Source: Vulcanimicrobiota bacterium (GTDB lineage: Bacteria; Vulcanimicrobiota; Vulcanimicrobiia; Vulcanimicrobiales; Vulcanimicrobiaceae). Taken from it: a stretch of 64,000 bases of DNA. The translations under genes were made by a program, and so were the position numbers. This document shows positions 1 to 60,323 of the stretch, piece after piece. The notes beneath the pieces are model-generated. The model made no database searches, was not told where the DNA came from, and worked only from the letters and a program-made list of their open reading frames with translations. The DNA is taken from NCBI GenBank assembly GCA_963833095.1, contig CAWHWQ010000001.1, forward strand, positions 160,001 to 224,000. The letters are read 5' to 3'. Every line of letters begins with the position of its first letter. Position 1 is the stretch's first letter.

Positions 1-788
1 GTCGCGTCTCGCGCTCGCGCGGATCGAGGAAGGCGAGCAGCTTCTCTTCGAGCAGACGCGGGTTGTCGCCGGCCTGGATCGCGAGGATGCCTTCGATCAT
101 GATCTCGCGCATCAGCAGCAGCTGACCGTTGCGCTCTTTGATCTTCGTGGCGATCGGCAGCCAGAGCAAGTTGGCAAACATGATACCGAAGAACGTCGCG
201 ACGAACGCCTGCGCGGTCGCAACGCCGATCGTGCCGGCGACGTTGGTGCTGTTGCCCATCGTCCGAGAGGCCCTTGAGCATGCCGATCAGGCCGAGCACG
301 GTACCGATGATGCCCAGGGTCGGCGAGAAGCCGCCCAAATTCATGAAGACTGCTTCGGCCTTGGCGCTGTGTCTCTTGCGTGTTGCTGACTTCGGTCTCG
401 AGAACTTTGCGGATGATTCGGTGTCGCGGCCGTCGATGACGAGCTGGATGCCTTTGCGCATGAACTCGTCGTCGAGCGCCGCGGCCTCGTTCTCGAGGGC
501 GAGCAAACCTTCGCGGCGCGCCTTTTCGGCGAACGAGACCAGGGTCGAGATGATGTCGCGCTCGTGATAGTCGACCTCGACGAACGCGGTCTTGAAGCCA
601 CCGAAGAACCCGCGCATGAAGATGCGCATCGGGAACGAGGTCAGCGTCGCGCCGAGCGTTCCGCCGAGGATCAGGATGAACGCTTCGCAGCGCCCGAAGA
701 TGATGCTCGGGTCGGTTCCGCCGACGTACCCGGCAAAGAAGATGGCTCCAAAGCCGAAGAGTAGGCCAATAATAGTCGCAAAATCCAA
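1..788 (-). CDS. motA: Flagellar stator protein MotA (frameshifted; runs off the window edge)
   Basis: TTG start gives MDFATIIGLLFGFGAIFFAG. Later fragments SFAEKARREGLLALE, GGFSPTLGIIGTVLGLI, AFVATFFGIMFANLLWLPIATKIK and MIIEGILAIQAGDNPRLLEEKL are typical of MotA. Several indels. Confidence 0.9.
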   Translation of the reverse strand, partial: MDFATIIGLLFGFGAIFFAGYVGGTDPSIIFGRCEAFILILGGTLGATLTSFPMRIFMRGFFGGFKTAFVEVDYHERDIISTLVSFAEKARREGLLALENEAAALDDEFMRKGIQLVIDGRDTESSAKFSRPKSATRKRHSAKAEAVFMNLGGFSPTLGIIGTVLGLIGMLKGLSDDGQQHQRRRHDRRCDRAGVRRDVLRYHVCQLALAADRHEDQRAQRSAAADARDHDRRHPRDPGRRQPASARREAARLPRSARARDA

Positions 789-56576: not shown

Positions 56577-56651
56577 TGGAGCCGTTGACGGGGATTGAAC
56601 CCGTGGTCTCCTCGTTACCAACGAGGTGCTTTACCGCTAAGCTACAACGGC
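56577..56651 (-). tRNA. tRNA-Thr(GGT)
   Basis: CCTCG-TTGGTAA-CGAGG anticodon arm; encoded CCA. Confidence 0.97.
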
Positions 56652-56655
56652 GCGC

Positions 56656-56906
56656 CGGCGTTTGCTACTCCATCCTACAGTGGCAACCCTACCAGTTGCG
56701 GCGGCGCTAGCCTCGCTGTCGCGTAATCCTCGCCCCACCTCACATAGTGACTGCTCTTGCAGCTAAATGTCACCACGCCCCTGCGCAGCCACCCGCTCTT
56801 GACCTGTACACGGGTGATACGCACATCCTTGTCAGCCAAGAAGCCGGTAACGCGCGTTTCTCTCCAAAGGGCTTGGCGACGGTGTGCCCCTTATGGAGGA
56901 ACGCCG
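56656..56906 (-). ncRNA. Candidate multi-stem structured ncRNA within the tRNA operon
   Basis: Closing stem CGGCGTT/AACGCCG plus CTCCAT/ATGGAG enclosing at least five internal stems; no credible ORF. Confidence 0.6.
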
Positions 56907-56968
56907 CCATGACCATGAGTTCAGAAACGAGACTACGTGGTTAGTCGCCCACCAGTCTGGCACGTTGT

Positions 56969-57042
56969 TGGAGCGGGCGGCGAGAATCGAACTCGCGCTA
57001 TCTGCTTGGAAGGCAGAGGCACTACCATTATGCAACGCCCGC
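56969..57042 (-). tRNA. tRNA-Gly(TCC)
   Basis: TCTGC-CTTCCAA-GCAGA anticodon arm; encoded CCA. Confidence 0.97.
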
Positions 57043-57059
57043 GAAAGCCAAAGACGGGA

Positions 57060-57147
57060 TGGTGGGCCGGGCTGGATTTGAACCAGCGTATCGCTTTCGC
57101 GAGCCGAATTTACAGTCCGGTGCCATTAACCACTCGACCACCGACCC
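57060..57147 (-). tRNA. tRNA-Tyr(GTA)
   Basis: Loop CT-GTA-AA, long variable arm TCGC-GAAA-GCGA, encoded CCA. Confidence 0.97.
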
Positions 57148-60168: not shown

Positions 60169-60220
60169 TCATCCAATCCGACAGGAGCGAAGGCCGGACC
60201 GTGGAAACGAGGGCCGTCAC

Positions 60221-60303
60221 GCCGGAGTCCCATAGCGGTCGATTGGGCGGGTTTTGTAAATCCGAGACGCAAGTCCACGTCGGTTCGAATCCGACCTCCG
60301 GCT
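60221..60303 (+). tRNA. tRNA-Thr(TGT) with an atypical long variable arm
   Basis: Acceptor GCCGGAG/CTCCGGC; anticodon arm CGGGT-TTTGTAA-ATCCG; variable region A-GAC-GCAA-GTC-CAC; T arm GTCGG-TTCGAAT-CCGAC; discriminator T. Confidence 0.85.
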
Positions 60304-60323
60304 CCGTTCGCTAGAAGGAACGC

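Follow-up and report, generated by a model that had tools for sequence, protein, structure and literature searches.

A tRNA-Thr(UGU) gene with a class II-like variable arm in a Vulcanimicrobiota genome

The long-arm tRNAs listed by textbooks and reviews are those for Leu, Ser, Sec and, in bacteria, Tyr, and no others (PMC9976931, PMC7609411). Here we describe a tRNA gene with a long variable arm and a threonine anticodon, tRNA-Thr(UGU), at positions 60221 to 60303 of a 64,000 nt stretch of a Vulcanimicrobiota bacterium genome (GenBank assembly GCA_963833095.1, contig CAWHWQ010000001.1, positions 160,001 to 224,000), and throughout the text "the window" means this whole stretch. We consider it highly likely that the gene is a working tRNA-Thr(UGU), an orthologue of the thrU-type gene whose core has been remodelled in a class II-like fashion and which reads ACA as threonine. 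No description of a long-arm tRNA-Thr was found in the full-text literature, to which subscription journals and supplements could add one, and the gene is apparently an undescribed and unusual variant in which the function is ordinary and the evolutionary pattern is the interesting part.

Allo-tRNAs (Mukai et al. 2016, PMC5389517) are likewise bacterial tRNAs whose variable arm is long and whose anticodons are not those of Leu, Ser or Tyr. They have an 8/4 or 9/3 branch, a Sec-like D arm, mostly Ser or Ala acceptors and links to mobile elements, whereas the window tRNA is a core gene whose branch is 7/5 and whose acceptor stem is of the Thr type. The nematode nev-tRNAs (PMC3333845) are also class II with anticodons for neither Leu nor Ser but are reported to decode an alternative code for leucine, whereas here ACA still stands for threonine. 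The phage T5 tRNA-Thr(UGU), a counter-defence against PARIS AriB (PMC12409363), is the same isoacceptor as a target in phage-host conflict; it differs in that its changes, as described, are substitutions near the cleavage site, and in the main text of the paper the word 'variable' is absent.

The class I tRNA-Thr(UGU) of the thrU type shares with the window tRNA the loop YUUGUAA with A37, the pairs G1-C72 and C2-G71, the locus, ACA as threonine and U73, the last also found in the other Thr tRNAs of the genome, and differs from it in having a variable region of 5 nt in place of a 14-nt hairpin and a D stem of 4 bp in place of 3 bp plus U13.U22. With bacterial tRNA-Tyr, which is class II, the window tRNA has in common the 3-4-bp variable stem, the GNRA loop, one base before and three after the stem and the 3-bp D stem, but it has U73, G35, the anticodon UGU and an acceptor stem starting GCC. 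Long-arm Thr(UGU) genes of viral contigs and of Spirosoma have the same architecture and a Thr-type acceptor stem, whereas the window gene is chromosomal, the sole UGU tRNA and syntenic with short orthologues.

Structure and conservation of the gene

The assembly that holds the window (G000; other G numbers are genomes of relatives) comprises 2.8 Mb in 8 contigs. ARAGORN calls six tRNAs in the window, one of which is a tRNA-Thr(tgt) at 60221-60305 on the forward strand (85 nt, anticodon at position 35, that is 60255-60257). The Rfam tRNA model RF00005 scores it at 49.1 bits (E 2.7e-08), above the gathering score of 29, and in its minimum free energy (MFE) fold it forms a cloverleaf of five arms, the extra hairpin among them. 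The complete cloverleaf with anticodon TGT proposed in the initial annotation is confirmed. Its parts are as follows.

60221..60303, forward strand: tRNA-Thr(UGU) gene, positions 1-73, class II-like body, 83 nt (ARAGORN, Rfam, MFE fold, alignment)
60221..60227, forward strand: acceptor stem 5' strand GCCGGAG, pairing with 60296-60302 (CUCCGGC) (per-pair covariation table)
60230..60246, forward strand: D arm with C10-G25, C11-G24 and A12-U23, the mismatch U13.U22 and a 9-nt loop with G18G19 (ARAGORN; helix covariation)
60248..60264, forward strand: anticodon arm, 5-bp stem, loop UUUGUAA, UGU at 60255-60257 followed by A37 (ARAGORN; covariation)
60265..60278, forward strand: 14-nt variable arm A-GAC-GCAA-GUC-CAC, 3-bp stem, GNRA loop, two unpaired bases plus C48 (covariation)
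60279..60295, forward strand: T arm, 5-bp stem, loop UUCGAAU (Rfam alignment; covariation)
60296..60303, forward strand: acceptor stem 3' strand and discriminator U73 (sequence)
60304..60306, forward strand: CCG trailer, CCA not encoded (sequence)

The branch is 7/5 (acceptor/T), with U8 then C9 after the acceptor stem, and the tertiary-core invariants are complete (U8, A14, G15, G18G19, C48 and the T loop). The anticodon sits in a 7-nt loop with U33 and A37, as in tRNA-Thr(UGU), and both marks of a class II (type 2) tRNA are present, namely a variable region longer than 10 nt with a stem-loop (14 nt, 3 bp, GCAA loop) and a 3-bp D stem with 13:22 unpaired; other long forms have G13.A22 at this place, as in Ser tRNAs. 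The remodelling of the core would consist of this D stem with its 13:22 mismatch together with the GNRA-capped variable arm. Several further readings of the initial annotation also held: G1-C72, C2-G71 and discriminator U73 occur as in the window tRNA-Thr(GGU) on alignment, the 14-nt variable region is read in the sequence and forms a hairpin in the MFE fold, and the 3' end is CCG instead of CCA. This end is ordinary in G000 since 19 of its 40 parsable tRNAs have no encoded CCA (21 of the 40 do), and a gene for a PolyA_pol-family nucleotidyltransferase was found in the same genome.

A misread T run leading into the anticodon had been raised as a point to check. Such a sequencing error is rejected, with the 85 nt found again at 97-100% identity in 6 other assemblies of the genus (the gene is present at 89-100% in 7 other genomes of the genus), no difference over Thr(UGU) in a DNA run that may be the source sample, and 0 differences over 60181-60305 in two metatranscriptome contigs from two studies. 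These contigs come from related genomes, since their outer flanks are unlike the window, and their match extends upstream of the tRNA.

60181..60220, forward strand: 40-nt leader, identical together with the tRNA in both RNA-library contigs (metatranscriptome match)

This suggests that 60181-60220 may be a conserved leader or promoter region; a scan for sigma-70 promoter and terminator consensus sequences at Thr(UGU), with the leader included, found nothing.

More diverged long forms are found in G003 and G011 (genus of the window) and in G029 (another family of the same order). In order to assess the structure across relatives we made an alignment of those long forms whose arm is 14 nt, which are 18 distinct sequences among the 44 unique long forms. 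Standard pairs fill 99.3% of the pair cells in this alignment, compared with 73.4% in shuffles and at most 46% with the partners slid. The variable-arm helix is paired in 100% of cases and all three of its pairs have changed on both sides, all five pairs of the anticodon stem covary and both-side changes are seen in two of the three D-stem pairs, while G1-C72, C2-G71, C3-G70 and G4-C69 are invariant and are shared by nearly all short forms. The remaining long forms have arms of 13-19 nt with stems of 2-7 bp and mostly GNRA caps, and in nearly all long forms one base precedes the arm stem and three or four follow it. These data show Thr(UGU) to be a conserved gene under structural constraint.

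The window gene is the sole ACA-reading tRNA of its genome. Among 41 ARAGORN calls in G000 the Thr anticodons are GGU, CGU and UGU, with UGU represented by the window gene, so that the earlier question of whether it is the only UGU tRNA is answered in the affirmative both for G000 and for four long-form relatives assembled as single contigs (G002, G006, G023, G041). A second UGU tRNA missed by the strict pattern of the survey below was considered and rejected; a relaxed pattern (TTGTAA, 10-32 nt, GTTCRANNC) returned from these four genomes the long form and 6 other matches, none of which ARAGORN calls a tRNA. As a separate observation, both forms are found in G148, on two contigs (L204 and L205), where besides the long Thr(UGU) there is a short one of 72 nt with no GG in its D loop. 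This double set may reflect a genuine pair, contamination or the decay of one copy.

We put the chance that the gene is a pseudogene, an assembly artefact or a false positive of ARAGORN at practically nil. The program does err in G000, where it calls a 'tRNA-Arg(ccg)' without the T-loop motif, but in the case of Thr(UGU) ARAGORN and the Rfam model concur, the tertiary-core invariants are all present, no other UGU tRNA was found and many independent assemblies keep the gene with compensatory changes. For practical purposes this reading is refuted. The Arg call (C2:223418-223502, 85 nt, anticodon at position 38, no GTTCRA motif) is itself probably a false one.

Long and short forms at one locus

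The distribution of the long form was surveyed in 151 sampled genomes of the order, G000 included, using the pattern YTTGTAA, 10-32 nt, GGTTCRANTCC. The pattern matched 138 of the 151 genomes in 141 rows, leaving 13 genomes without a match, and the match was at least 37 nt long in 81 genomes. One of these, a 46-nt match in G072, is not a tRNA and was taken out of the long count. A hairpin-length variable region in Thr(UGU) was found in 77 of the 151 genomes (one of them, G155, flagged unpublished), an 11-12-nt variable region with no obvious hairpin in three (G042, G046, G090) and only a match of class I length (29-33 nt) in 57. ARAGORN confirmed 43 of the 77 long forms at full length as tRNA-Thr(tgt) and the others are assigned from their 3' half alone. 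Within the genus of the window 10 genomes have the long form, four the short form (G001, G005, G013, G014) and four have no assignment. This makes threonine a fourth elongator isotype with the long-arm shape, and in at least half of the order as sampled the gene that has it is a core gene present in a single copy.

Elsewhere in the phylum (75 genomes) a 31-nt short match was found in 45 genomes and is near-invariant within families, 29 genomes had no match and G187 had a 48-nt row only; rows of odd length from G202, G184 and G187 (44-50 nt) and from G209 (34 nt) were set aside. A scan of GTDB genomes gave a long Thr(UGU) in at least 8 among the 120 loci listed, other phyla included. The carriers among these loci include Spirosoma fluviale DSM 29961, in which no pattern match other than the long form was found, a metagenome-assembled genome (MAG) of the Acetobacteraceae and a Woeseiaceae MAG, the last with two short matches besides its long form. 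In the family of Spirosoma the long form was found in 5 of 81 genomes, with most of the family missed by the strict T-loop pattern. The initial annotation would have been refuted, by its own terms, if databases showed long-arm tRNA-Thr(UGU) to be already documented and widespread; it proves to be widespread, but no paper documenting it was found.

Both forms occupy the same place in the genome, for which a neighbouring tRNA cluster serves as the landmark.

56577..57147, reverse strand: tRNA cluster Tyr(GUA)-Gly(UCC)-Thr(GGU), divergent from Thr(UGU) (landmark for positional orthology)

In most genomes, with either form, Thr(UGU) is divergent from this cluster and lies 0.2-3.6 kb from it, and the neighbourhood is common to the short-form genomes G005, G014 and G022 and to the long-form genomes G000, G002, G011, G023, G041, G047 and others. 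Within the genus the flanks of Thr(UGU) can be aligned at about 70-81% identity and the downstream genes are syntenic, and the window gene is the positional orthologue of the short-form genes. The short-form genome G021 (L145:17462-17906) has the four genes arranged in tandem, Thr(UGU) first, then Tyr, Gly(UCC) and Thr(GGU), which is also the order of the E. coli thrU-tyrU-glyT-thrT operon. A prophage attachment scar was also considered and rejected, as no partial copy of the tRNA was found elsewhere in G000 and synteny is kept downstream of the gene.

Outside the D and variable arms the two forms can be very similar. G014 (short) and G015 (long) are identical at 49 of 49 such positions, and the anticodon arm CGGGTTTTGTAAACCCG is common to G013 (short) and G002 (long). 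A tree of these 49 columns, which are few, implies at least 11 changes of form, only 5 of them forced by well-supported branches. Forms that look intermediate include short forms with a 3-bp D stem and a 5-nt loop (G013, G101, G022) and the A/C-rich variable regions of 11-12 nt without an obvious hairpin in G042 and G090, and hairpins are found in G099 and G148a on the D arm that G042 also has. The locus would appear to have flipped repeatedly between short and long within this order, with the long arm a tolerated and heritable architectural variant that would leave the code unchanged. To our knowledge, discussion of how a long variable arm arises or is lost is usually confined to the deep split of tRNA-Tyr, and the short, intermediate-looking and long forms at one syntenic locus offer a natural series for the gain and loss of the arm and of the D arm that matches it.

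The initial annotation had proposed an origin from tRNA-Tyr by a 1-nt anticodon shift, and in a fuller version a tRNA-Tyr body would have undergone a one-base loop shift (CUGUAAA to UUUGUAA) and acquired a Thr-type acceptor stem, which is compatible with charging by threonyl-tRNA synthetase (ThrRS) today. The Tyr-like geometry on which the proposal drew is real. One unpaired base lies 5' of the variable stem and three lie 3' of it including C48, as in the window tRNA-Tyr, whereas the Ser tRNAs of G000 have one base 3' of the stem and the Leu tRNAs two. The motif TGTAAAT(C/T)CG is indeed common to both tRNAs in the window but is not conserved, as relatives read ...TGTAAACCCG. Home-made covariance models, used as a stand-in for isotype scores and built from 21 short Thr(UGU) genes and from 20 Tyr tRNAs, gave in effect a tie. 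The window tRNA scores 50.6 bits with the class I Thr(UGU) model, below the window Thr(GGU) (72.5), Gly, Trp and Arg tRNAs, and 52.9 bits with the Tyr model, second to the real Tyr (89.6) and far higher than the remaining non-Tyr tRNAs in the window (25-37), although the fit to the Tyr model needs a 1-nt shift of the anticodon loop (an insertion and a deletion). For 28 other long forms the Thr model scored higher in 16 and the Tyr model in 12. Also in keeping with a Tyr body are the finding that a tRNA-Tyr, from Agrobacterium phage Atu_ph07, is the top match among named phages (79% over positions 10-75), a CCC/GGG D stem that resembles the Tyr tRNAs of several Proteobacteria, and the tandem adjacency of Thr(UGU) and Tyr in G021, which would favour exchange.

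Set against these resemblances, identity to the resident Tyr is only 58% (54% in the core), with 62% to Thr(GGU) and 63% to Ser(UGA), and among the D arms of 48 long forms the best match is a Ser tRNA of G000 in 24 and Tyr in 1. The short orthologues have the same acceptor stem, anticodon arm and T arm, so no anticodon shift is needed to account for the loop, the intermediate-looking forms suggest a stepwise change of a Thr gene, and the resemblance to Tyr could equally be convergence imposed by class II geometry. Overall a Tyr origin seems to us improbable, with the geometry and the model score of the original proposal upheld and descent from the resident Tyr not. The most fitting description of the window tRNA is a generic class II core that carries the acceptor stem, anticodon arm and T arm of a tRNA-Thr. 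With regard to the phage record, Atu_ph07 (L177:585-734) has a 'hypothetical protein' coding sequence antisense over its tRNA-Tyr, which is probably spurious, and this tRNA sits in a run of six tRNA genes that are absent from the feature table of the record at that place.

Meaning of ACA and charging

A long arm raises the question as to whether SerRS, TyrRS or LeuRS might charge the tRNA, in which case ACA would come to specify, entirely or in part, an amino acid other than threonine, and non-canonical charging had been suggested in the initial annotation. [quoted passage not shown] We compared the reading frames of G000 with 400 kb of the short-form genome G021 using tblastn (424 alignments, 93,059 columns). 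Opposite the 298 ACA codons of G000, G021 has Thr in 42%, Ala in 18% and Ser in 7%, and the corresponding values are 48%, 14% and 8% for ACC, 50%, 13% and 7% for ACG, and 41%, 17% and 5% for ACU. The codons facing the 298 ACA include ACG 80 times, ACA 26 times and ACC 18 times, while Ser is found 21 times, Leu 7 times and Tyr 3 times. ACA therefore aligns with threonine as ACC, ACG and ACU do and is to be taken as threonine, and it is not avoided either, since it makes up 6.3% of the Thr codons in G000 against 2.6% in G021. Recoding of ACA is not supported by these alignments, and the genetic code would be unchanged by the long-arm tRNA.

The sequence of the tRNA points in the same direction. 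The pairs G1-C72 and C2-G71, which are the Thr identity pairs in E. coli, are present in the window tRNA together with G35 and U36. Pairs of the acceptor stem and bases of the anticodon confer threonine identity (PMC9976931), and ThrRS would charge Thr(UGU) through these four elements. No Thr identity element would lie in the D or variable arm, so that the extra arm would leave identity unaltered, and the hairpin of the arm is presumably maintained by the need for an expanded variable region to fold in a stable way. The Tyr determinants A73 and U35 (PMC13433404) are replaced in the window tRNA by U73 and G35, which would keep TyrRS off, and U73 would do the same for LeuRS, whose determinant is A73 (PMC9976931). 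Bacterial tRNA-Ser has G1-C72, G2-C71, a long variable stem and G73 (PMC9976931), whereas the window tRNA has C2-G71, U73 and an arm stem of 3 bp compared with 6 bp in the Ser tRNAs of G000. SerRS would probably be disfavoured by C2-G71 together with the short, Tyr-oriented arm, and any Ser-tRNA-Thr that did form would be what the editing domain of ThrRS naturally acts on, a domain that the enzyme of G000 retains.

G000 has one thrS gene (C4:103815-105485, 576 aa), the product of which has a tRNA_SAD domain for editing, a class II core domain and an anticodon-binding domain, and lacks TGS. Its identity is 89-91% to the ThrRS of four short-form members of the genus and 89-95% to that of three long-form members. 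In an alignment of 11 sequences none of the 1027 columns separates short-form from long-form genomes, and an adaptation of ThrRS to the long arm was rejected as no column tracks the form of the tRNA. The absence of TGS was likewise rejected as a correlate of the long arm, given that the short-form genomes G030 and G177 also lack it, and in the long-form Spirosoma fluviale an N-terminal stretch of ThrRS is TGS-like by eye. As an observation on the enzyme itself, all 11 ThrRS genes of the order, together with those of G030 and G177 from elsewhere in the phylum, begin at the editing domain without TGS.

A number of points weigh against a working tRNA-Thr(UGU) that serves as the only decoder of ACA as threonine. 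The codon comparison gives the evolutionary meaning of ACA, with which a low level of Ser misincorporation is compatible, and charging of Thr(UGU) by ThrRS is something that we infer from sequence. The tRNA-Ser(UGA) of G000 shares U73, so U73 may not repel SerRS. The metatranscriptome contigs demonstrate presence in RNA libraries and do not thereby prove transcription or maturation, the sole-decoder claim leans partly on complete relatives because G000 is 80.7% complete, and the covariance models do not separate Thr from Tyr (50.6 vs 52.9 bits). The U73 shared with Ser(UGA) is also a feature that a recoding or ambiguous decoding of ACA could call upon, yet ACA is indistinguishable from ACC and ACG in its alignment with Thr and Ser, few Tyr and Leu stand opposite it, C2-G71 replaces the G2-C71 conserved in bacterial tRNA-Ser, the arm stem is half the length of that of the Ser tRNAs, A73 and U35 are absent, and with the forms alternating among species of one genus a repeated proteome-wide recoding would be needed. 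We regard recoding as very improbable, and the suggestion of non-canonical charging finds no backing in the way ACA aligns or in the determinants of the tRNA. In the reading that we prefer, an ordinary threonine tRNA on a remodelled core, an identity problem is posed all the same, that of keeping SerRS off a long-arm tRNA that shares U73 with Ser(UGA). Long-arm Thr(UGU) may also be of use as a natural chassis for tRNA engineering, and annotation pipelines that use arm length as a cue to isotype may flag or mislabel such genes. Among the Ser tRNAs of G000, Ser(UGA) (C1:500125-500211) is alone in having U73, with G73 in the other three.

Turnover, viral genes and conflict

Pairwise identities were calculated within the genus from 5 genomes (10 pairs; for Trp 4 genomes and 6 pairs). 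The mean identity of Thr(UGU) is 71%, with a minimum of 59%, compared with 90% for Thr(GGU), 93.5% for Arg(CCU), 98.7% for Tyr, 99.5% for Gly(UCC) and 100% for Trp.

Long forms are also found in viral contigs. Among 120 loci listed from IMG/VR, ARAGORN calls at least 31 long tRNA-Thr(tgt) and at least 14 tRNA-Tyr, the best match to the window tRNA among the matches listed has 82% identity, and the D-arm types of the viral long Thr genes parallel the types in the bacterial family of the window. Some of these matches are placed at the ends of contigs, where they may represent host tRNAs that border prophages. A blastn search against named phages returned only a tRNA-Tyr and a match in the T arm.

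One explanation for this pattern is that the remodelling and fast turnover of Thr(UGU) were selected by tRNA-targeting nucleases or toxins, whether of defence systems, phages or competitors, with phages and hosts sharing a pool of resistant long-arm variants and ACA still read as threonine. The 71% mean identity within the genus, against 90-100% for the other tRNAs and 70-81% for the flanking DNA, would fit with such a conflict, as would a 3' half that is near-invariant within families outside the order and the number of long Thr(UGU) genes among the viral loci listed, with their parallel D-arm types. No nuclease or toxin has been linked to these genomes, however, and many long forms retain U36-A-A-U-C-A41, the sequence cut by AriB in E. 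coli. ACA is a minor codon, for which relaxed constraint could account for part of the rate, some of the viral matches may be host tRNAs as noted, and relatedness inflates all such comparisons. We view selection by conflict as possible but on the whole unlikely. The wider proposal, that a single locus has switched between class I and class II many times in one family, driven by conflict with enzymes that cut or modify tRNAs and drawing on a variant pool shared by phages and hosts, is put forward no less tentatively; within it, Thr would be the isotype able to bear a Ser-like arm, given that editing of Ser-tRNA-Thr is already a task of ThrRS.

Two minor observations concern neighbouring and related sequences. 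The window Thr(GGU) gene (56577-56651, reverse strand) and its orthologues vary in the anticodon and T stems, while the adjacent Tyr and Gly genes vary far less. An expanded variable region of a second kind, 11-12 nt long, A/C-rich (...ACAAACA...) and with no obvious hairpin, occurs in both bacterial (G090, L175; G042, L220) and viral (L249, L303, L324) sequences.

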